DNA of 64,000 nucleotides from a virus (IMGVR_UViG_3300012347_000217:46664-110663), one strand, 5' to 3'. Positions 6,429 to 38,618 are shown, numbered from the stretch's first letter. Notes: a model not told the origin generated them from the sequence alone. Program-made: numbers and translations.

Positions 6429-6532
6429 AACCAAAGTACTCCAGACCACCTCGGTGGCTCCGGTACGCTCTAGGTGCTAGGAGGCGCCTCGGTGGCTATC
6501 CACGCCTTCCGAAAATACATCAAAATAAATGG

Positions 6533-6560
6533 TTGCCAGTAGTGCCGGATGATGTATAAT
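6533..6560 (+). promoter_or_regulatory. sigma70-like promoter (-35 TTGCCA 6533-6538, 16-nt spacer, -10 TATAAT 6555-6560)
   Basis: read directly. Confidence 0.55.
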
Positions 6561-6567
6561 CCATCCA

Positions 6568-6680
6568 TTGATTCGAAGGACATATCCGGGATGGACGTGG
6601 AGGCTGCCTGACCAGAATTCCCAGCGCCGGCACCCTTCACTGTCACCCTATTATATCATGCCCCGCAACGGCTGGCAACC
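6568..6680 (+). ncRNA. candidate small RNA unit U2 (paralogue of U1)
   Basis: immediately downstream of the 6533-6560 promoter; sequence paralogous to 6000-6110; no ORF. Confidence 0.25.
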
Positions 6681-6913
6681 AGTTTACAAACTATTTTTGG
6701 CTCATTTTTGAATACTTTTGTTTGCAGGATGAACCACTGTATACTACTATGGTTAACCCACTAGGATCGCACGGAGCACTGGTTTCGGCATTAATGAAGG
6801 TCAACACCTTGCCGTGCATCATTGCCTAATCCTGACTGGTTCTGGTTGATCCTAAGCATGGCAAGCATTTTCTATGGTACTGTACCGATTCGGTTGTAAT
6901 ACTTTTGTACCTC

Positions 6914-6942
6914 TTGCCAGATTTTCGTGGTTATGATATAAT
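6914..6942 (+). promoter_or_regulatory. sigma70-like promoter (-35 TTGCCA 6914-6919, 17-nt spacer, -10 TATAAT 6937-6942)
   Basis: read directly; followed by a non-coding stretch up to ~7200. Confidence 0.5.
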
Positions 6943-30183: not shown

Positions 30184-30381
30184 ATGATGCAACGCACACC
30201 TGTACCTATTGAATACCTCGAAGAAAAATGTATACAGTGGGATTCTGTATATTACCATCCAGATTTCGATTCGGATAAATTTGCCAAGCTCCTTGCAAAA
30301 GAGATTTTGAATTTGGCTAATCGACATGGCAATATTAAACCACGTGAAGTAATGAAATATTTTGGAGTAGAAAATGCGTAA
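30184..30381 (+). CDS. hypothetical protein
   Basis: ATG 30184 after GGAG. Confidence 0.4.
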   Translation: MMQRTPVPIEYLEEKCIQWDSVYYHPDFDSDKFAKLLAKEILNLANRHGNIKPREVMKYFGVENA

Positions 30382-31420
30382 ACTTGCAACAATCCGTAAA
30401 ATTGATGAACTGAACCCAATCGAAGGCGCCGATGCAATCGAGTGTGCCGTTGTGGGTGGCTGGAAAGTGGTAGCACAAAAAGGTCTGTACCAAGTTGGTG
30501 ACCTTGCTGTTTACTTTGAGATTGATTCATGGATTCCAACTGAGTTGGCTCCATTCCTGTCCAAAGGTAAAGAGCCACGTGAGTTTGAAGGTGTCAAAGG
30601 TGAACGCCTGAAGACTATCAAACTGCGTGGTCAGTTGTCTCAAGGTTTGTTGATTCCTGTCCATAATGATAAGACTGGCACATACCTGATGGTCTATACG
30701 GACGAAACAGGTGAGTATTCTCTGACTGTTGCTGAAGGTGATGATGTTACTGAGGCACTTGGTGTCAAGAAGTGGGAAAAGCCAATCAATGCTCAACTGG
30801 CTGGAGTATGTAAAGGTAATTTCCCTTCACTGATTCCAAAGACTGACCAAGAACGTGTGCAAAACTTGAAGAAAGAAATTGCGGCTGCACGTGAACTGAC
30901 ATTTGAAGTGACCGAGAAGTTAGAAGGTTCTTCTATGACTTGCTACTTGATTGAAGGTGAGTTTGGTGTTTGCTCACGTAACATGGACTTGAAAGAGTCC
31001 GAAGGTAATGCGTTTTGGGCCACTGCACGCCGTGAAGGTGTGGAAGAAAAGATGCGAACCGAGTTTGGCCTTGCAGACTTTGCCGTGCAAGGTGAACTGA
31101 TTGGTCCAGGTATTCAAGGTAACATCTACAAACTATCCGAACCTAGGTTCTATGTGTTTGATATCTATGATATTCGCCGTGGTGTGTATGTTGGTCCACG
31201 AACTCGTCAAGCTATGGTCAATGATATGGGCCTCAGCCATGTACCGACTATCTGGCACCAATGGAAACTTGATGCTGATGTTGACACACTCTTAGCACAA
31301 GCCGAAGGTGCTTCTTGGCTCAACAAAGACCAAGAGCGTGAAGGTATTGTGTTCAAGCAACTTGATGGTGGTATGACCTTCAAGTCTATCTCTAACAAAT
31401 ATCTACTCGGAGAGAAGTGA
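30374..31420 (+). CDS. ATP-dependent RNA ligase-like nucleotidyltransferase (N-terminal OB-like domain plus C-terminal NTase; Rnl5/DraRnl-like architecture)
   Basis: candidate motif I lysine in VTEKLEGSSMTCY at about aa 187, with the catalytic domain in the C-terminal half; 348 aa; assignment by pattern, not search. Confidence 0.55.
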   Translation: MRKLATIRKIDELNPIEGADAIECAVVGGWKVVAQKGLYQVGDLAVYFEIDSWIPTELAPFLSKGKEPREFEGVKGERLKTIKLRGQLSQGLLIPVHNDKTGTYLMVYTDETGEYSLTVAEGDDVTEALGVKKWEKPINAQLAGVCKGNFPSLIPKTDQERVQNLKKEIAAARELTFEVTEKLEGSSMTCYLIEGEFGVCSRNMDLKESEGNAFWATARREGVEEKMRTEFGLADFAVQGELIGPGIQGNIYKLSEPRFYVFDIYDIRRGVYVGPRTRQAMVNDMGLSHVPTIWHQWKLDADVDTLLAQAEGASWLNKDQEREGIVFKQLDGGMTFKSISNKYLLGEK

Positions 31421-31597
31421 TGGCTAAAATTATTCTGGCATTTGCTTCATTTGCCGTGATTATACATTTCGTCATTACTTTGTGGCGTTCACTTAATGGT
31501 CTGGAAAAGTGGACGTTGACAAAGAATGTGGTTTATAGTATAATGATTTCTGCATTGGCAATTCTGCTGATGGTTGGTCTTGTGATTGTTTTTTAAG
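31421..31597 (+). CDS. small membrane protein (58 aa)
   Basis: MAKIILAFASFAVIIHFVITLW...; ATGA overlap with previous gene; below track cutoff. Confidence 0.3.
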
Positions 31598-31606
31598 GAA
31601 CTGAAA

Positions 31607-32419
31607 ATGAAACGTATTTTGAGTATTGGTATTTTGGGTGCCGCAATTTTGATGACAGGTTGTACTCGAATCGAAACCGGTGAGATTGGTCTTCGGATTG
31701 ATATGAGCAAACAGATTAGCAACAACGAACTAGCAGAAGGTTCATGGAATCAAACAATCATTGGTGATGTTCTTACATTCCCAGTGAAAGAAGTTGCAGT
31801 CAAGGTTGATGACTTGAACCCACAGGCCGCAGACAACTCAACAATGAAGGACTTTGACTTGACTGTTATCTATAACATTAACAAGAGTCAAGTTGCCGAA
31901 ATTTACAACAGCAAGAACAAGTCATTCCATGCCAAGCATGACGGCGACACTTACCTGATGTATAACTACATTTATAATGCTACACGAAATGCAGTATACA
32001 AGTCCGCACGAAAGTATGAAGCATTGAATATGGGTGATAACCGTACACCAATGGAAATTGAAATCAAAGAACTTATCACTGGTACACTGGCATCTGAAAA
32101 GTTGGATGGTTCTATCACAATTAGCCAAGTGTTGATTCGCCAAATTATTCCAGCAGATACTGTGGTCGAATCAGCTAACGCATTGGTCCGTGCTAAGAAT
32201 GAAACCAAGCAGAAAGAAGCCGAAGTTCGTACTGCTCAACTTGAAGCACAACGTATTCAAGCACTGGCACAGAACCAAGGCGCTATTGCATACATGGATG
32301 CACAGACACGAATGACCTTAGCCGAAGCTGCCAAGATTCAAGCCCAAGCTATTGCACACTTCAAAGGTGGTACACTGGTTATTGGTGGCCAGCCCCCTGT
32401 GTTGAATGTAGGTAAATAA
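31607..32419 (+). CDS. SPFH/band-7 (prohibitin/HflKC-like) lipoprotein
   Basis: lipobox LMTGCT after signal peptide; IETGEIGLRIDMSKQ start typical of SPFH domains; C-terminal Ala/Gln coiled coil. Confidence 0.6.
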   Translation: MKRILSIGILGAAILMTGCTRIETGEIGLRIDMSKQISNNELAEGSWNQTIIGDVLTFPVKEVAVKVDDLNPQAADNSTMKDFDLTVIYNINKSQVAEIYNSKNKSFHAKHDGDTYLMYNYIYNATRNAVYKSARKYEALNMGDNRTPMEIEIKELITGTLASEKLDGSITISQVLIRQIIPADTVVESANALVRAKNETKQKEAEVRTAQLEAQRIQALAQNQGAIAYMDAQTRMTLAEAAKIQAQAIAHFKGGTLVIGGQPPVLNVGK

Positions 32420-32521
32420 ATGTGGTAAACAGTAGCCAATTACACTATAATCAAGTATAATTGGCTATATACCAATGTGAGAGATAGACTTTCACACGAC
32501 ACTTATTCAAAGGAGTTTTGA

Positions 32522-33541
32522 ATGTCAAAAAAATACGATACCCTTGTCCTTATCGGACGCTTTCAGCCTTTTCACAATGCTCACCTAGAGATTATCAAAC
32601 GTTCCACAGCCTTGTGTGACAAATTGATTATCATTACTGGTTCTGCGGCACAGCCTCGCACCTACAAGAACCCATTTAACTCACACGAACGTGCCACTAT
32701 GATTAAGGCCGCAACTGGTGGCCTTGCAATCAATATCATTATTGAGTCCAATGTGGACACAATCTATAATGACCAAGCATGGGCAGTTCGTGTTCAAGCT
32801 ATCGTCAATCGAAACACCAAGGCTGGTGACAAAGTTGCCGTCATCGGCCACAAGAAAGATGATTCATCATTCTACCTCGATATGTTCCCACAATGGGGCT
32901 ACGAGAATGTGGAAGAAATTGAACCACTCTCTGCGGTTAATATCCGTGACTTGTATTTCAAGCGTGATGTTAATATGAACTTCATTAAGAACGTGGTGCC
33001 ACAAACTACATTCGTTTACTTGGATGCCTTCAAGGATACTCCAGAATACGAACAAATCATCCGTGAGCGTGAGTTCGTTGAGGCGTATAAGAAACAATAC
33101 GCCTCACTTCCTTACCCACCAATCTTCTCTACTGCCGATGCCGTGGTTGTTCAATCTGGACACGTACTTATGATTAAGCGCCGAGCAGAACCAGGTAAAG
33201 GATTGTGGGCACTTCCAGGTGGCTATGTTAATGCTAACACCGACAAGTCTGTGGAAGATGCTGCGATTCGTGAACTGCGAGAAGAAACAAAGATTAAGGT
33301 GCCTGAACCTGTATTGCGTGGCAATATTGTCCGTGCTAAAGTCTTTGATGCAGTTGACCGTTCACCACGTGGCCGTATCATCACTCATGCCTTCTACATT
33401 CAATTACCCGATGGTGAATTACCAAAGGTCAAAGGTGCCGATGATGCCGAAAAGGCACGTTGGGTTCCAATCGCAGAAGTTAAGTCTGAGGAATGTTTTG
33501 AAGACCACTACGAAATTCTGCAACACTTCTTGGGAGCCTAA
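32522..33541 (+). CDS. natV: bifunctional NMN adenylyltransferase / Nudix ADP-ribose pyrophosphatase (NadM-Nudix, NatV-like)
   Basis: GRFQPFHNAH nucleotidyltransferase motif at N-terminus; Nudix box AIRELREETKI in the C-terminal half. Confidence 0.85.
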   Translation: MSKKYDTLVLIGRFQPFHNAHLEIIKRSTALCDKLIIITGSAAQPRTYKNPFNSHERATMIKAATGGLAINIIIESNVDTIYNDQAWAVRVQAIVNRNTKAGDKVAVIGHKKDDSSFYLDMFPQWGYENVEEIEPLSAVNIRDLYFKRDVNMNFIKNVVPQTTFVYLDAFKDTPEYEQIIREREFVEAYKKQYASLPYPPIFSTADAVVVQSGHVLMIKRRAEPGKGLWALPGGYVNANTDKSVEDAAIRELREETKIKVPEPVLRGNIVRAKVFDAVDRSPRGRIITHAFYIQLPDGELPKVKGADDAEKARWVPIAEVKSEECFEDHYEILQHFLGA

Positions 33542-33542
33542 T

Positions 33543-34010
33543 ATGTTAAAACACGCAAAAGGTAATTTACTTGACATGGCCGAGAACGGCGACTTTGATG
33601 TTATCGTCCAAGGTTGTAACTGCTTCAACACGATGGGTGGTGGTATTGCCCGTGAGATTGCAGAACGTTATCCACAGGCTATGTTGGCTGATAGAGAAAC
33701 TGAACGTGCCGATTATAAAAAGCTAGGTAACTGGACTCAATCATGGTCTCACGTGGCAGAGTTTGAAATCATTAACGCCTACACACAATATAGTATGTCT
33801 CGTGGTTTTGATGTGTTTGAGTATGTGGCTTTTGAATTGATCCTACAAAAACTCTTACACTATTATGGTGATAAACGTATCGGTTTACCATATATTGGTA
33901 TGGGTCTGGCTGGAGGTGATGAACAAACTATCCTCAATATGATTGAAGATTGGGCTTATGGTGTTGCATCAAAAGGTGGTACTGTAACATTAGTGGAATT
34001 TGGAGGTTGA
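33543..34010 (+). CDS. macro domain protein (ADP-ribose binding/processing)
   Basis: DFDVIVQGCNCFNTMGGGIAREIAERYP matches the macro-domain core; real start 33543, the track ORF 33219.. is an upstream frame extension. Confidence 0.75.
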   Translation: MLKHAKGNLLDMAENGDFDVIVQGCNCFNTMGGGIAREIAERYPQAMLADRETERADYKKLGNWTQSWSHVAEFEIINAYTQYSMSRGFDVFEYVAFELILQKLLHYYGDKRIGLPYIGMGLAGGDEQTILNMIEDWAYGVASKGGTVTLVEFGG

Positions 34011-34011
34011 T

Positions 34012-34476
34012 ATGAAAGAAATCAAAGCACCAAACTTTTTCCCCGCAATGGGTAAGAATGTGTTCCTTGCAGGCTCTATTGAAATGGGAGTTGCAGAGCA
34101 ATGGCAAGAACGTCTGGCTAAAATGCTAACTGATGTGGATTGCACACTACTGAATCCCCGTCGGGATGATTGGGATACCTCATGGGTACAATCAATCGAC
34201 AATCCACAATTCAAAGAACAAGTTGAATGGGAACTTCGTGGCTTGGATAGTTCTGTTATCGTTGTATTCTATTTTGATCCAAATACAAAGAGCCCGATTA
34301 CACTCATGGAACTAGGTTATGTGGCACATACTTGGTGTGATGTAGTTGTGTGTTGCCCAGAAGGATTTTGGCGTAAAGGTAATGTTGATATTATGTGTGA
34401 ACATACCGGAAAGGATACCGTAAACTCTCTCGAAGAAGTTGCGGAATATGTGAGAAAGAAATTGACACAGAATTGA
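34012..34476 (+). CDS. nucleoside 2-deoxyribosyltransferase-like fold protein
   Basis: KNVFLAGSIE...ERLAKMLTDV...CTLLNPRRD...FYFDPN...TLMELGYVA pattern typical of the NDT/DNPH1 family; 154 aa. Confidence 0.55.
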   Translation: MKEIKAPNFFPAMGKNVFLAGSIEMGVAEQWQERLAKMLTDVDCTLLNPRRDDWDTSWVQSIDNPQFKEQVEWELRGLDSSVIVVFYFDPNTKSPITLMELGYVAHTWCDVVVCCPEGFWRKGNVDIMCEHTGKDTVNSLEEVAEYVRKKLTQN

Positions 34477-34510
34477 AATTGTGTTATAATGTAAGCACTA
34501 GAGATAGACT

Positions 34511-34526
34511 CTGGTATAATTTAAAC
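34511..34526 (+). promoter_or_regulatory. extended -10 promoter (TGGTATAAT) for nadV
   Basis: agactcTGGTATAATtt 17 nt before the RBS AAGGAGA. Confidence 0.4.
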
Positions 34527-34542
34527 TGTTAAGGAGATTAAC

Positions 34543-35940
34543 ATGAAACTGGCAAAAAATATCTTATTGAATACCGACTCGTACAAGGTTAGTATGTGGA
34601 AACAATATCCCGTGGGAACCACTGGAGTTTACTCATACATCGAATCACGTGGCGGTAAGTATGACGAGACACTGATGTTCGGCCTACAAGCCTTCATCAA
34701 GGAGTATTTACTTGAACCAATCACACAAGCCGACATTGACATTGCAGACGAGATTCTCACAGCGCACGGTGAACCCTTCAACCGAGCTGGTTGGGATTAC
34801 ATCCTTAAAAATCACAAAGGATACCTCCCACTCGTTATTCGTGCTGTACCTGAAGGCACTGTGGTCCCTGTCTCGAATGTTCTGGCAACTGTCGAGAACA
34901 CAGACCCAGAATGTTTCTGGCTGACAACTTACCTTGAAACTGCTTTGCTTCGTGCTGTGTGGTATGGTACAACCGTAGCAACACAGTCATATAAAATCAA
35001 GAAGGTTATTCTTGAATACTTGGAGAAAACTGGTGATCCTGCTGGTATTGATTTTAAATTGCATGATTTCGGTGCCCGTGGTGTTTCAAGTATGGAATCT
35101 GCGGGGATTGGTGGCGCAGCGCACTTGGTTAATTTTATGGGTACTGACACTGTTACTGGTCTGCTTTATGCTCGTGAGTACTATAACGCTGGCATTGCAG
35201 GTTTCTCAATTCCAGCCGCAGAACACTCCACAATCACAAGTTGGGGTCGTGAAAACGAAGTAAAAGCCTATGACAACATGCTCAACCAATTTGCTAAACC
35301 TGGTGCTATCCTTGCAGTTGTATCTGATAGCTATGACATTTACAATGCAGCTTCTAAGTTATGGGGTGAAGAACTCCGACAAAAGGTTGTGGATTCTGGC
35401 GCTACTGTCGTCATTCGCCCTGATTCTGGTGACCCTGTAGCCGTCAATAAACAATTGGTTCAAATCTTGGATCAAAAGTTCGGCAGTACAGTAAACTCCA
35501 AAGGTTTCAAAGTTCTTAATAACATTCGACTGATTCAAGGAGATGGTGTAAATGAACTTACTATTCGCTCTATTCTTGGTGCCTTTATGGCTCTTGGGTA
35601 TTCTGCTGATAATATTGCTTTTGGCATGGGTGGAGCGTTGTTGCAAATCGTGGATCGAGACACCCAACGATTCGCAATGAAGTGTTCTTCTATTCAAATC
35701 AATGGTGCATGGCAAGACGTACAGAAAGATCCTGTGACTGACTCTGGTAAGCGTTCTAAAGCAGGACGTGTAACTCTCTGGCAATCAGGCGGTGAACTGT
35801 ACTCTGGTATCAAACCACCAACAGGTTGGACCGACAAAGGTTATGGTGGTTGGGTCGAAGCAATGCAAACCGTGTACCGTGACGGTCAGATTGTCCGTGA
35901 ATACGACTTTGCAGAAGTTCGTGCCAATGCACGTAAGTGA
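34543..35940 (+). CDS. nadV: nicotinamide phosphoribosyltransferase (NadV/NAMPT)
   Basis: N-terminus NILLNTDSYKVSMWKQYP and overall 465 aa match NAMPT. Confidence 0.9.
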   Translation: MKLAKNILLNTDSYKVSMWKQYPVGTTGVYSYIESRGGKYDETLMFGLQAFIKEYLLEPITQADIDIADEILTAHGEPFNRAGWDYILKNHKGYLPLVIRAVPEGTVVPVSNVLATVENTDPECFWLTTYLETALLRAVWYGTTVATQSYKIKKVILEYLEKTGDPAGIDFKLHDFGARGVSSMESAGIGGAAHLVNFMGTDTVTGLLYAREYYNAGIAGFSIPAAEHSTITSWGRENEVKAYDNMLNQFAKPGAILAVVSDSYDIYNAASKLWGEELRQKVVDSGATVVIRPDSGDPVAVNKQLVQILDQKFGSTVNSKGFKVLNNIRLIQGDGVNELTIRSILGAFMALGYSADNIAFGMGGALLQIVDRDTQRFAMKCSSIQINGAWQDVQKDPVTDSGKRSKAGRVTLWQSGGELYSGIKPPTGWTDKGYGGWVEAMQTVYRDGQIVREYDFAEVRANARK

Positions 35941-35960
35941 TTAGAGTTCACACACTACGA

Positions 35961-35988
35961 AAAAGGTGTTGCCAGTGACACCTTTTTC
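35961..35988 (+). terminator. rho-independent terminator after nadV
   Basis: AAGGTGT-tgccagtg-ACACCTT then TTTT; a second hairpin with T-run at 36000-36028. Confidence 0.65.
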
Positions 35989-36052
35989 ATATATAATAAC
36001 TGTGAGTGCCAATCGGGCTCACATTTTTAACCTCGCTTTTTAAGGAGCAACT

Positions 36053-36238
36053 ATGACATTTCTAACTACATTCGTCGAATCGGCCGCAGACATTCAAAAG
36101 AACACACTGAAGGTTTTTGTAACTGACGAACAATTCCGTAAGCCACTCGCATCTATCATTGATGCACAAACTGCCTTGGCAAAAGAGTCAATCAAAACTG
36201 CTCAAGGTCTTGTTGGTAAGTTGAAGCTGGCTAGCTAA
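36053..36238 (+). CDS. hypothetical protein
   Basis: 61-aa ORF with RBS AAGGAG. Confidence 0.45.
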   Translation: MTFLTTFVESAADIQKNTLKVFVTDEQFRKPLASIIDAQTALAKESIKTAQGLVGKLKLAS

Positions 36239-36253
36239 TAGCCACATTTTGTT

Positions 36254-36829
36254 ATGATATCTGTGACCAAAACCAATCTTCGCAGATTGGGAGAATACGC
36301 CAAACATCTGAAAGCAATGCCAACTGAGGACCGTGGTTCTCGGTTCGGTTCAGCCATCTCGGATTATGGCATTGACCAAATTATGCTACAAATGGCATAT
36401 CATCCTGATGACCATCAACTGTGGTTTGCCCACAATAATGGTGAGGAGATTCTTGGTTGGGGTCACATGGCACAGTCAAAGCCTGATGTTTGGGAATTGG
36501 CTGTGTCTGTTGAGAAGGCTCACCAACGCAAAGGTGTAGGTGATAAACTAATCACCGAAATGCTTGAGTGGGCCGCATATCACCGCATTGGTGAAGTCTT
36601 CATGCACTGCATCGAAGAAAATAAGGTTATCCAACACCTTGCAACTAAGCATGATTTGAAAACCGTCGAACGTGGCTATGGTGAACGCACAGCCGCAATC
36701 GAAGTACCTGCACCAACATTCCTAGAAATGAATGAACAGTTTATGAAAGAGCAGATGGAAATTCGCACAGAAATCAGACAGCTATATAAGAGGCTGACTG
36801 ATATGTGGGTTAACCCATCCAAAATTTAA
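36254..36829 (+). CDS. GNAT-family N-acetyltransferase
   Basis: acetyl-CoA motif AHQRKGVGDKLI. Confidence 0.6.
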   Translation: MISVTKTNLRRLGEYAKHLKAMPTEDRGSRFGSAISDYGIDQIMLQMAYHPDDHQLWFAHNNGEEILGWGHMAQSKPDVWELAVSVEKAHQRKGVGDKLITEMLEWAAYHRIGEVFMHCIEENKVIQHLATKHDLKTVERGYGERTAAIEVPAPTFLEMNEQFMKEQMEIRTEIRQLYKRLTDMWVNPSKI

Positions 36830-36831
36830 TT

Positions 36832-37278: not shown

Positions 37279-37574
37279 TGAACTTCCGTAAATACTACGG
37301 ACCAACCCTTGACTGGATAGCCCATGACTTTAACTCTCACCGAATTCGCTTTTGTATTGAGTTGCTTGCTTGGGCTATTAGCATTGGATGTTCGATTACT
37401 ATGGCTCTCACAGTCCCCAACCCACCGCTTCTGGCTCTTTATCCTATTTGGATTACTGGTTGTGCCTTGTACGCTTGGTCTGCTTGGACTAGGAAATCTT
37501 TTGGCATGTTGGCTAACTACGTTCTGCTAACCACAATCGACACTATTGGCCTAATTCGGATGTTGACAAACTGA
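37278..37574 (+). CDS. membrane protein
   Basis: 98 aa, three hydrophobic helices. Confidence 0.5.
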   Translation: MNFRKYYGPTLDWIAHDFNSHRIRFCIELLAWAISIGCSITMALTVPNPPLLALYPIWITGCALYAWSAWTRKSFGMLANYVLLTTIDTIGLIRMLTN

Positions 37575-37615
37575 ATGGTTCTGTTATAATAGCATCATTG
37601 TAAAACGGAGTTGCT

Positions 37616-38179
37616 ATGAATATCTTTTATCTTCACCACGATCCTGTTCAATGTGCCGAAATGCACAACGACAAGCATTGTATCAAAATGATTCTCGAAT
37701 ATGCTCAACTACTTTCTACCGCTCATAGGGTGCTTGATGGCGTTCCTACTGTTGATAGGGGAACTGCAACTGGCAGACAACGAACCACGTATATACTCGC
37801 TGATAATCGTGATGCTCTGCTTTATCGGGCTACTCATATCAACCATCCTTCAGCAATCTGGTGTCGCCGTGGCAATGCAGAATATGTATGGTTACATTCA
37901 CTCTTAGATGCTCTATGTAAAGAGTATACGTATCGCTACGGTAAAGTTCATAAGTGTGAACGTGACGGCCTAGTTGAAATGCTGAAACGTACACCTGACA
38001 ATATCAAAATGTCGGATCGTTTCACAGAGCCAACACCGGCTATGCCAGATGAAATCAAAATTGCAGGTAACAGCATTGCCTCGTACCGCAACTACTACAC
38101 AAAAAGTAAAACACATCTTGCATCATGGCAAGGTAAATTCAATTCACGTTCAATCCCGGAGTGGTATAATGTCCAATAA
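37616..38179 (+). CDS. hypothetical protein
   Basis: 187-aa ORF; extended -10 TGTTATAAT at 37584-37592. Confidence 0.55.
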   Translation: MNIFYLHHDPVQCAEMHNDKHCIKMILEYAQLLSTAHRVLDGVPTVDRGTATGRQRTTYILADNRDALLYRATHINHPSAIWCRRGNAEYVWLHSLLDALCKEYTYRYGKVHKCERDGLVEMLKRTPDNIKMSDRFTEPTPAMPDEIKIAGNSIASYRNYYTKSKTHLASWQGKFNSRSIPEWYNVQ

Positions 38180-38618
38180 TTTTTCGGTCGGTGACCGAGT
38201 ACGAGCAACTATGCAAGCTGGCTTCCATAAAGGTGCCGAAGGTGTAATCAACTATATTGAGCCAGCAGGTAAATGTTGGGTTCGCCGTGATGGTGCAAGT
38301 TCTGATATTTGGTATGATGCAGGTGAATTGGAACTATTGAGGCCATTTAAAAGACGCAATCGTGAACGTGTCATGGATGTTCTGCAAGAAGAATGTGCAG
38401 AGGTTATTCAGGCAGTATCGAAGATTCGCCGTTTTGGTTTAGAAGAATCATGGAACTCTACCACCAATAAACAAGCACTCATTACAGAAATTGGTGATGT
38501 TCTTGCCATTGTGGACATTCTTGTCGAGGAAACTGATATAAATATTGATAGACTGCAAATCGAATTGGCTATCAAGGCCAAGAAGAAGAAGCTAGAGATT
38601 TTCTTACCTTACGAATAA
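38170..38618 (+). CDS. MazG-like nucleotide pyrophosphohydrolase with N-terminal KOW/SH3-like segment
   Basis: LQEECAEVIQA ... EIGDVLAIVDIL (EExxE / ExxD pair typical of MazG); start at 38170 (MSNNFSVGD). Confidence 0.55.

Follow-up and report, generated by a model that had tools for sequence, protein, structure and literature searches.

The locus described here lies in a window of 64,000 nucleotides (the whole stretch of DNA that was analysed) from a T4-like phage. It is probably a NAD+ reconstitution operon of the NARP2 type in which two ADP-ribose-processing enzymes have been inserted at the junction between nadM and nadV. The unit consists of four genes, nadM, macro, NDT-like and nadV, rather than of the five proposed in an earlier, sequence-only reading, and its limits are supported by promoter-like sites and a hairpin. 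Judged by homology, the core pair is NARP2; since the combination of NadM-Nudix and NadV has been published under that name, the core is already known.

Limits of the unit and its core pair

A megablast search against GenBank phages gave no nucleotide match for the window, meaning that no close relative of the phage has been sequenced. The five open reading frames considered (nadM, macro, NDT-like, nadV and GNAT) all lie on the + strand and were found exactly where the sequence-only reading had placed them. The features of the locus are as follows.

32433..32461, + strand: candidate sigma-70-like promoter 5' of nadM (TAGCCA-17-TATAAT, 10/12, a consensus match only)
32522..33541, + strand: NadM-Nudix, bifunctional NMN adenylyltransferase and Nudix protein (ADP-ribose pyrophosphatase type), the Nmnat of NARP2 (by Pfam, NCBIfam, PHROG 395 and motifs)
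33543..34010, + strand: macro domain protein of the Poa1p/Adpp/DarG/TARG1 clade, starting 1 nt past the nadM stop
34012..34476, + strand: PF15891 nucleoside-2-deoxyribosyltransferase-fold (NDT-like) protein, starting 1 nt past the macro stop, with GGAGG just 5'
34462..34490, + strand: candidate sigma-70 promoter positioned for nadV (TTGACA-17-TATAAT with TG, 12/12 consensus), overlapping the 3' end of the NDT-like gene
34543..35940, + strand: NadV, nicotinamide phosphoribosyltransferase, the Nampt of NARP2 (by Pfam, NCBIfam and tblastn)
35959..35988, + strand: terminator-like 12-bp hairpin with U-run just past the nadV stop (by folding energy against shuffles)
36254..36829, + strand: GNAT acetyltransferase (Pfam Acetyltransf_1, 6.8e-10)

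The 1-nt gaps between nadM, macro and the NDT-like gene suggest that these three genes are translationally coupled; the starts at 33543 (macro) and 34012 (NDT-like) match the N-termini of the orthologs. nadV would be transcribed from its own early-type candidate promoter of perfect consensus, and the unit would stop at the hairpin (dG -15.6 kcal/mol, z -4.97), with 0 of 200 shuffles equally stable.

The GNAT gene had been counted as the fifth member of the module. We observed that it is separated from nadV by the hairpin and by a promoter-like site of its own, and that no homolog of it occurs at any of the 80 closest nadV loci. Beyond these 80, homologs were detected in three other lineages only (L021, L039/L040). 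Given the hairpin, the separate promoter-like site and the absence from almost all relatives, GNAT is a separate gene outside the module.

The NadM-Nudix protein has the Pfam domains CTP_transf_like (2.8e-14) and NUDIX (2.7e-20), passes the NCBIfam equivalog cut-offs (NF003786, 399.8 versus 397; NF003788, 375.9 versus 354), matches PHROG 395 at 1e-79 and shows the GRFQPFHNAH and REx2EE motifs in its translation. In NadV the domains are NAMPT_N (3.6e-28) and NAPRTase (1.2e-62), and the score against NF006629 of NCBIfam is 649 bits with a cut-off of 405. NadV is 55-61% identical to the annotated phage NAMPTs topping the tblastn list and 31% identical to Namat of Vibrio phage Gary. In the window nadM lies about 1 kb upstream of nadV. 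Among the 80 closest nadV loci, 59 could be evaluated (39 with the type-I NadM of the window and 20 with the other NadM type), and nadM was just upstream of nadV in all 59.

The make-up of the pair is that of NARP2: a Nampt-type transferase, a co-encoded NMN adenylyltransferase and no Adps partner. No Adps was detected in the whole window by tblastn with Gary and bacterial Adps queries; this absence, together with a NadV nearer to Nampt than to Namat, ruled out a module of the NARP1 type. No Prs-like ORF was present among the 30 larger ORFs of the window that were scanned, and PADLOC gave no defence-system match for NadV or the NDT-like protein. The NadV and NadM pathway of phages, NARP2, has been experimentally characterised; it consumes PRPP and counters Thoeris, DSR and SIR2-HerA (bioRxiv 10.1101/2024.02.11.579819). 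The domains, the equivalog cut-offs and the published pathway thus bear out the earlier identification of a salvage pair, and the published activity fits its suggested use against NAD-depleting defences. The route drawn from nicotinamide and ADP-ribose/PRPP needs a correction. NAD+ is made from nicotinamide, PRPP and ATP, while ADP-ribose enters only via the Nudix domain.

The macro protein

Pfam had no match for the macro ORF at E<=0.01, so that its assignment drew on PHROGs and the PDB, on pairwise comparison and on a fold search. The protein is 32% identical to Adpp of Vibrio phage Gary, and a macro fold was found by the fold search; homology to a validated Adpp and the macro fold place it in the Adpp/Poa1p family. 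In recent work Adpp, a Poa1p-like phosphatase acting on ADPR-1''-phosphate, was shown to extend NARP1 (Osterman et al. 2026 preprint). We infer that the macro protein is an enzyme of the Adpp/Poa1p type, removing a substituent from the 1'' position of ADP-ribose. This substituent would most likely be the phosphate of ADPR-1''-phosphate from RES-type NADases. The benefit of such a phosphatase is not obvious, since NARP2 by itself already cancels aRES defence.

The macro gene is situated between nadM and nadV in 30 of the 39 close relatives with type-I NadM, compared to 0 of 20 loci with the other NadM type. The macro domain and its position, as first read, are confirmed, and the gene is a companion of the pair and not a chance neighbour.

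Catalytic residues, by which the sequence-only reading proposed to judge the macro and NDT-like ORFs, are kept in the macro protein in part. Asn26 (N27 in Gary) and the glycine loops GGGIA and PYIGMGLAGG are invariant, whereas Gln23 occupies the position of His24 of Gary Adpp (H23 of Poa1p). The Gln is present in at least 90% of 51 close macro homologs; His appears in some NARP2-linked orthologs, and close orthologs alternate between the two residues. An H24A mutant of Adpp is included in Table S4 of the Adpp study (Osterman et al. 2026 preprint), and according to the legend to its Figure 3B anti-defence is lost when Adpp is mutated.

The substitution of Gln for the Adpp His would suit another, distinctly unlikely, reading in which the macro protein is a DarG/TARG1-like glycohydrolase that strips ADP-ribose from DNA, RNA or protein, e.g., against toxins of the DarT or CmdT type. 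DarG profiles do match the protein, weakly, in NCBIfam (3.8e-5) and PADLOC (1e-5), but the NCBIfam match has 23 bits, far under the 250-bit cut-off. The Lys of the DarG PTKKHW motif, the catalytic residue of DarG/TARG1, falls on the invariant T81-Q82 of the macro protein and is aligned with Gln82. Because an invariant Gln stands in place of this Lys, the erasing of ADP-ribosylation marks, earlier considered as a role of the module, is disfavoured. Validated Adpp is much closer in pairwise similarity, and the macro gene is located inside a NAD salvage operon; both points argue for the Adpp/Poa1p type.

The PF15891 protein and its neighbourhoods

The protein encoded at 34012..34476 had been described as having a nucleoside-2-deoxyribosyltransferase fold, and this description holds: it belongs to PF15891 (Nuc_deoxyri_tr2) with an E-value of 1.2e-35 and 122.4 bits versus a gathering cut-off of 30. 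It stays under the gathering cut-off of the classical NDT family PF05014 (19.6 versus 28.8 bits), where, as in NDT and DNPH1, the Glu nucleophile is placed at the start of the helix after strand 4. The NDT fold of this 154-aa protein was confirmed, and an invariant Glu is kept as a candidate catalytic residue; the alignment with the 72 closest homologs has 28 invariant columns. R50, R51, R121 and K122 are invariant as well and might contact a diphosphate. With hhalign, only the N-terminal GS-loop was aligned to human DNPH1. A profile search against the PDB returned 4MCJ only (BDI_0649 of Parabacteroides distasonis), a solved PF15891 structure; as a structural-genomics entry with no assigned function it is no guide to the substrate. 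The protein may be a Glu-dependent N-glycosidase acting on the ribosyl-nitrogen bond of a NAD-derived molecule, which we put forward more weakly than the macro assignment. A role as a dNMP hydrolase against Kongming was considered and dropped, as the Kongming preprint mentions no hydrolase, deoxyribosyltransferase or evasion.

Close relatives have the NDT-like gene more rarely than the macro gene (6 of 59 loci). The co-conservation of the two genes with nadV/nadM expected from the sequence-only reading is seen at least partly for both. In the clustered set of 42 loci, 19 have the NDT-like gene within 8 kb of nadV and/or nadM; these linked copies appear in at least six gene orders and are scattered over a rough neighbour-joining tree of the family. 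Among cultured phages, the gene did not adjoin nadV in the seven whose neighbourhood was examined. The carriers BUDD, DLP_6, L02, Slickus01, RsoM2USA and Tunturi_5 have no nadV or nadM within 5-6 kb on each side (in RsoM2USA the NDT-like gene and nadV are about 107 kb apart), and neither a macro nor an NDT-like gene stands beside nadV in ACP17, Mx1 and RsoM2USA, the cultured phages with the closest nadV. At phage loci other than NARP2 the commonest neighbour family of the NDT-like gene was DUF4326.

In bacteria, 20 of 80 PF15891 loci have a NadM/Nudix-like or NadV-like match within 6 kb, and at most of these 20 loci the NDT-like gene adjoins a Namat homolog, usually directly upstream of it. 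In Bacteroidota the operons with the NDT-like gene are led by NrtR and Adps and also contain PARG, ARH, Macro, NADAR, KptA, Metallophos and DUF4291; their Namat homolog is 45% identical to Gary Namat and their Adps 43% identical to Gary Adps. Cultured Bacteroidota with such an operon include Aquimarina sp. LLG6339-5, A. addita JCM 17106 and Spongiivirga sp. MCCC 1A20706. The several phage gene orders near nadV/nadM and the Bacteroidota operons with Namat and Adps indicate that the NDT-like gene is a real companion of the pair.

Fusions of PF15891 were observed with Acb1 in one phage contig (L032) and with ART-PolyVal in the phage Tunturi_5, there as a polyvalent protein beside the portal gene; a look for further fusions in P0076 and P0105 yielded nothing informative. 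Long ORFs in GC-rich MAGs were rejected as fusions, being artefacts of ORF extension.

The same neighbourhoods bear on a possible, if doubtful, alternative: an ordinary N-glycosidase or transferase of nucleotide salvage, acting on (d)NMPs or nucleosides like DNPH1, MilB or NDT, whose link to NadV is the supply of (deoxy)ribose-5-phosphate/PRPP or bases. NARP2 does consume PRPP, and the many invariant columns among the closest homologs would be in keeping with salvage, as would the thymidylate synthase among the neighbours in other phages and the locus of DLP_6, where PhoH and an exonuclease flank the NDT-like gene and dCMP deaminase genes are about 2 kb off. PF15891 is also common in nucleotide-scavenging Patescibacteria, Micavibrio and Bdellovibrionota. 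The Bacteroidota copies, however, adjoin Namat and Adps, which have no need of PRPP, in company that entirely releases or processes ADP-ribose; the fusions to Acb1 and ART-PolyVal and the sub-threshold PF05014 score likewise speak against salvage. Strong conservation marks the family, which is spread widely through Patescibacteria, Micavibrio and other bacteria and there occupies housekeeping contexts such as ValRS-DUF4442-NDT-Hsp20; for that reason a common metabolite would suit it better than a lineage-specific immune signal.

Functional coupling itself can be questioned: the nadM-nadV junction might be a hot spot that collects unrelated accessory genes, the macro and NDT-like genes among them. 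The gap between nadM and nadV is 42-94 nt long and empty in 25 of the 59 close relatives, some relatives have unrelated genes in or beside the interval (a radical SAM gene, a Zn-ribbon ORF and a homing-endonuclease-like gene, judged by eye), and the macro family (T4 Tk.4 type) is present in 2746 phage records, mostly with no nadV nearby. Against this stand the confinement of the macro gene to one NadM type, the recurrence of the NDT-like gene with nadV/nadM or Adps/Namat in many gene orders of phages and Bacteroidota, the 1-nt gene gaps, and two folds that both handle ribosyl bonds in NAD derivatives. We regard a mere hot spot as very improbable.

Proposed pathway and known systems

In the proposed operon of NARP2 with two inserted enzymes, the core steps are established for the family and are assigned here by homology. 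NadV would convert nicotinamide and PRPP to NMN, and the adenylyltransferase half of NadM would make NAD+ from NMN and ATP. The Nudix half would split free ADP-ribose into AMP and ribose-5-phosphate, the latter being turned into PRPP by the host. The pathway would thereby replace NAD+ lost to TIR, SIR2, SEFIR or RES effectors. The macro enzyme would convert ADPR-1''-phosphate to ADP-ribose and hand it back to the Nudix step. The NDT-like enzyme would cut an N-linked ADP-ribose conjugate or a cyclic ADPR variant, freeing ADP-ribose and/or the base, so that material locked by the host may re-enter the pathway or an immune signal may be destroyed.

The two core enzymes, their domain make-up, their adjacency and their expected chemistry are shared with NARP2 of Vibrio phage KVP40 (NadV/NatV; Osterman et al. 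2024); the promoter-like sites suggest that early-type expression is shared too. The window differs in the macro and PF15891 genes added between nadM and nadV and in a candidate promoter of nadV's own. With these two extra genes the locus is indeed broader than the KVP40 pair, as first supposed.

The insertion of an ADP-ribose-processing macro enzyme has a precedent in Vibrio phage Gary, whose NARP1-AP (Adps-Adpp-Namat) has a Poa1p-like macro phosphatase between two genes of a NAD reconstitution operon (Osterman et al. 2026 preprint). Unlike NARP1-AP, the window has no Adps and has Gln at the His24 position, and its pathway is NARP2, for which ADP-ribose is not needed as a substrate and aRES is already overcome. 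The putative glycosidase role of the NDT-like protein has a precedent in RyDEP, a glycosidase inserted in NARP1 operons that converts a NAD-derived immune signal to ADP-ribose (Lopez Rivera et al. 2026 preprint). The two share this concept, but the RyR repeat fold of RyDEP is unrelated to the NDT fold, and RyDEP cuts O-glycosidic ribose-ribose bonds, while an NDT-fold enzyme is expected to cut N-glycosidic ones. The NrtR-regulated Bacteroidota operons (L130, L133, L176 and others) encode the same PF15891 protein at 50-60% identity, usually directly 5' of a nicotinamide-using transferase; they differ from the window in being bacterial, with NARP1-type enzymes (Adps and Namat) and many more ADP-ribosyl hydrolases (PARG, ARH, NADAR, KptA).

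We tentatively propose, as a conjecture of rather low probability, that PF15891 is an unrecognised N-glycosidase class of the NAD/ADP-ribose network, an N-glycosidic counterpart of RyDEP. Free ADP-ribose would be released by opening N-linked derivatives such as cyclic ADPR (canonical or N7-linked), His-ADPR or ADP-ribosylated bases. In bacteria the class would serve the recycling of ADP-ribose under NrtR control; phages would have taken it over, along with an Adpp-like macro enzyme, to convert products of host immunity to NAD+ precursors. We found no paper describing a link between PF15891 and NAD rebuilding; De Souza & Aravind 2012 and Burroughs et al. 2015 may mention the neighbourhood. In the literature searched there was no mention of PF15891/Nuc_deoxyri_tr2, no relevant paper on polyvalent proteins or NrtR with deoxyribosyltransferase, and none assigning a function to YtoQ.

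NAD+ depletion and signals made from NAD count among the commonest anti-phage strategies of bacteria, and the phage pathways that rebuild NAD+ (NARP1, NARP2 and NARP3) form a young and active field. Accessories widening the range of recyclable substrates have so far been described for NARP1 only (the Adpp phosphatase and the RyDEP glycosidase); the window and its relatives indicate that NARP2 operons gather them as well. The same loci draw attention to PF15891, a family that keeps company with enzymes of NAD rebuilding in phages as well as in bacteria and is joined in fusions to domains known for counter-defence; its protein looks like an undescribed part of the NAD arms race. Identifying its substrate could bring to light a NAD-derived metabolite or signal that is new, or a new route of disarming one, and would aid in annotating thousands of "hypothetical" genes.

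The NAD-rebuilding unit and its predicted boundaries

All five ORFs called in the sequence-only reading were recovered in place on the + strand. Four are listed below; the fifth, the macro gene, lies between NadM-Nudix and the NDT-like gene.

32522-33541, +, NadM-Nudix, cytidylyltransferase-like and NUDIX domains
34012-34476, +, NDT-like gene, PF15891 at 122 bits
34543-35940, +, NadV, NAMPT_N and NAPRTase domains, NF006629 cut-off passed
36254-36829, +, GNAT, acetyltransferase

The product of 32522-33541 passed two NCBIfam equivalog cut-offs, as a bifunctional NMN adenylyltransferase/Nudix protein. The source of the window, a 177-kb contig, is a T4-like myovirus, with gp32, gp5, gp6, an ATP-dependent DNA ligase and a weak tail-tube-assembly match in the window; no close relative was found among GenBank phages.

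The intergenic gaps between nadM and macro and between macro and the NDT-like gene are 1 nt each, and the Shine-Dalgarno-like sequences of macro and the NDT-like gene are located inside the preceding gene. A weaker promoter-like site precedes nadM, and the NDT-like gene shares its final codons with a perfect sigma-70 consensus promoter oriented toward nadV. Downstream of nadV, 20 bases past its stop codon, lies a 12-bp hairpin carrying a U-run (dG -15.6 kcal/mol, z -5). A further promoter-like site, directed at a 61-aa ORF and GNAT, overlaps this hairpin. The gene spacing, the promoter-like sites and the hairpin delimit a predicted unit of nadM-macro-NDT plus nadV and place GNAT in the next one, with boundaries that rest on promoter consensus matches and not on measured transcripts.

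The sequence-only reading had also counted GNAT as a module member. This part did not hold: GNAT would form its own unit behind the hairpin and promoter-like site, it had homologs in none of the 80 closest nadV loci, and such homologs downstream of nadV were seen only in the relatives L021 and L039/L040. Searches by tblastn for Adps, NADAR, KptA, ARH, PARG, Acb1, ART-PolyVal and the accessory phosphoesterases of the relatives returned nothing else in the 64-kb window. Since GNAT is rarely shared and no other candidate appeared in the window, the module is one of four genes (nadM, macro, NDT-like and nadV), and for these four the original proposal stands; for two of them it went beyond what could be known from the sequence alone.

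Several neighbouring features were observed as well. Upstream of nadM, at a distance of 1.1 kb, is a DRB0094-family RNA ligase (30374-31420; TIGR02306, 6.7e-53; PHA02142 OB domain), which has homologs no more than a few kb from nadV in many relatives (e.g. L045-L051, L054, L094, L097). The gene between the ligase and nadM (31586-32419) encodes an SPFH/Band_7 protein whose N-terminus resembles that of a lipoprotein; many relatives likewise have a homolog of it no more than 8 kb from nadV. The N-terminal part (residues 42-96) of a MazG-like pyrophosphohydrolase ORF (38049-38618) matches a separate family, PHROG 18640; the 5' end of this ORF overlaps the preceding gene, so its true start is uncertain. 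Three perfect 12-of-12 sigma-70 consensus promoters occur within 9 kb (31516-31544, 34462-34490 and 37563-37590), each just 5' of a gene start (the SPFH gene, nadV and a PHROG 624 gene, respectively), which suggests that host polymerase may transcribe the accessory region strongly and early.

The NadM/NadV core and the macro gene

The NadV/NadM core is already known and is the ordinary part of the finding. NARP2, the pair of Nampt (NadV) and Nmnat (NadM) in phages, rebuilds NAD+ and overcomes systems that deplete it, Thoeris among them (bioRxiv 10.1101/2024.02.11.579819). The window NadV matched 2017 phage records by tblastn. As shown for their families, NadV and NadM would use nicotinamide, PRPP and ATP to regenerate NAD+, and the Nudix half of NadM would convert ADP-ribose to AMP and ribose-5-phosphate.

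The comparison drew on the 80 IMG/VR loci whose NadV is most similar to that of the window (77-87% identity); 59 of them had enough upstream sequence to judge. NadM was just upstream of NadV in all 59. It was of the window's type (type I) in 39 loci, with macro between nadM and nadV in 30, and of type II (33-39% identity) in 20 loci, with macro in that position in none. Thus, the three-gene form nadM-macro-nadV is common in the window's lineage; we found no mention in the literature of NARP2 operons that include a macro gene.

The junction between nadM and nadV is a hot spot for insertions (L004:5941-8001, L005, L021, L042:4439-8004 and the 80 nadV loci L045-L124). NadVs that closely resemble one another are preceded now by one NadM type, now by the other. 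Inserts in or next to the interval in relatives include macro, the NDT-like gene, a radical SAM protein (L004:7048-8010), a Zn-ribbon ORF, a Metallophos protein and, called by eye, a 199-aa HD-like protein and a homing-endonuclease-like gene.

According to a 2026 preprint (10.64898/2026.01.28.702374), the RES-domain NADase defence aRES converts NAD+ to nicotinamide and ADPR-1''-phosphate, which is not usable by NARP1 (the Adps plus Namat pathway); Adpp, a Poa1p-like macro phosphatase restoring ADP-ribose, is present in 15% of NARP1 operons. Against the purified Adpp of Vibrio phage Gary the window macro protein shows 32% identity (E 8e-18), and it matches the NARP1-linked macro of phage PN09 at E 2e-19. 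It would take a 1''-substituent, most likely phosphate, off an ADP-ribose derivative to give free ADP-ribose. Two points call for caution. First, NARP2 by itself already cancels aRES. Second, the Adpp mutant list has H24A and N27A, and according to the Figure 3B legend Adpp mutations abolish anti-defence (10.64898/2026.01.28.702374). The window protein keeps the Asn (N26) and has Gln where Adpp has His, as do at least 90% of 51 close macro homologs; His is found in some NARP2-linked orthologs. The macro extension of NARP2 is a variation on an idea that has only just been described, and its His-to-Gln change is unexplained.

A DarG/TARG1 mechanism is unlikely for this protein, since the Lys of the DarG PTKKHW motif, which we take to be the catalytic residue, aligns with an invariant Gln in the window macro family. 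Some NARP2-linked macro orthologs (L007, L008, L012, L014, L039) have N-terminal extensions of about 30-80 residues, as seen in ORF calls starting at the first in-frame start; the extended forms share a TNTDNP-type motif that the window macro does not have.

Neighbourhoods of the NDT-like gene in phages and bacteria

The NDT-like family was present in only 47 GenBank phage records, and nadV was not found near it in the seven cultured phages whose neighbourhood was fetched. Six of the 59 close nadV relatives carry the gene. Among 42 clustered loci from IMG/VR and other metagenome contigs, retrieved through the NDT-like protein, 19 had nadV and/or nadM within 8 kb, in at least six gene orders (e.g. 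nadM..macro-NDT-nadV; nadV-nadM-Metallophos-HD-like-macro-NDT; nadM-nadV-NDT; and nadM, nadV, three genes, NDT, Nudix), and on a rough NJ tree of the family these copies were scattered. Where phage loci lacked NARP2, the commonest neighbour family was DUF4326 (3 of 90 proteins), predicted to process ADP-ribose phosphates (Iyer et al. 2022). Two fusions were found: a 294-aa protein of a phage contig (L032:7950-8834) joins the PF15891 domain to an Acb1 anti-CBASS phosphodiesterase domain (PF23474, 1.3e-25), and the 1262-aa gp225 of Tunturiibacter phage Tunturi_5 (L001:4992-8780) combines an N-terminal PF15891 with ART-PolyVal beside the portal gene, a position like that of an injected polyvalent protein.

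With one genome per species and the best 80 bacterial loci kept, 20 had a NadM/Nudix-like or NadV-like match within 6 kb of the NDT-like gene (tblastn); almost all were Bacteroidota, several of them isolate genomes. By Pfam the operon runs NrtR (Nudix plus winged helix) - Prs-like - 2OG-Fe(II) oxygenase - Metallophos - microbial PARG - NDT-like - NAMPT-like - ADP-ribosylglycohydrolase - Macro - ADP-ribosylglycohydrolase, with NADAR, KptA/Tpt1 and DUF4291 as other members of such operons. It is of the NARP1 type, since the NAMPT-like protein is closer to Gary Namat (45% identity) than to the window NadV (34%) and the Prs-like protein resembles Gary Adps (43%). The NDT-like gene is directly upstream of Namat in most operons and downstream in one; the Aquimarina loci gave no Namat-like match within 6 kb of it. 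NARP1 has so far been described as primarily phage-encoded. The NrtR-led form (L133:1196-11334; also L130, L164, L173, L176, L182, L184, L199), carried by Bacteroidota and one MAG labelled Hydrocarboniphaga, is a predicted bacterial NARP1-like ADP-ribose recycling regulon.

Taken together, the varied gene orders, the scatter on the tree, the bacterial operons, the fusions and the DUF4326 neighbours indicate that the association with NAD rebuilding is no local accident. Of the NDT ('DrHyd') superfamily, viruses are stated to have only ADP-ribosyl-cyclase-like versions, and the NadM/NadV neighbour noted was NADAR, not the PF15891 family (Iyer et al. 2022). PF15891 was not named in the literature we found; older comparative-genomics work may describe the bacterial neighbourhood.

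Other occurrences were also seen. Tunturi_5 gp225 is annotated as a NUDIX hydrolase and has no Pfam NUDIX match. Xanthomonas phage BUDD has tandem NDT-like genes (L209:6001-6483 and 6480-6932), the second 24% identical to the window protein. In another T4-like lineage (L015, L016, L020, L023, L029, L031) the gene occupies a fixed site adjoining baseplate, a ~1000-aa Gly/Ala-rich protein and a gp20-type portal gene, with no NAD genes within 8 kb.

Predicted activity of the NDT-like protein

The AF2 model of the NDT-like protein is confident (pLDDT 94.5). Among 72 homologs 28 columns are invariant, including several Arg, Lys and Trp and E100 of an ITLMELG motif; E100 is at a helix start, where the NDT fold carries its nucleophile. 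The fold points to a ribosyl-nitrogen bond as the target. The accessories with assigned activities in the bacterial operons (PARG, ARH, Macro, NADAR), like both accessories known from NARP1 in phages (Adpp and RyDEP, a glycosidase inserted in its operons), free or tidy up ADP-ribose. With this fold and in this company, the protein may be a Glu-dependent N-glycosidase whose substrate derives from NAD. Candidate substrates would be cyclic ADPR with an N1 or N7 linkage, His-ADPR and ADP-ribosylated bases.

The main rival is a general (d)NMP/nucleoside glycosidase feeding ribose-5-phosphate into PRPP, a role suited to a strongly conserved family that is widespread in scavenging bacteria, where it sits in housekeeping contexts. 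Such a role, however, fits poorly with the Adps/Namat neighbourhood, which is PRPP-independent, and with the fusions to Acb1 and ART-PolyVal. The link of PF15891 to NAD-rebuilding operons in both phages and bacteria is the part of the finding worth following up.
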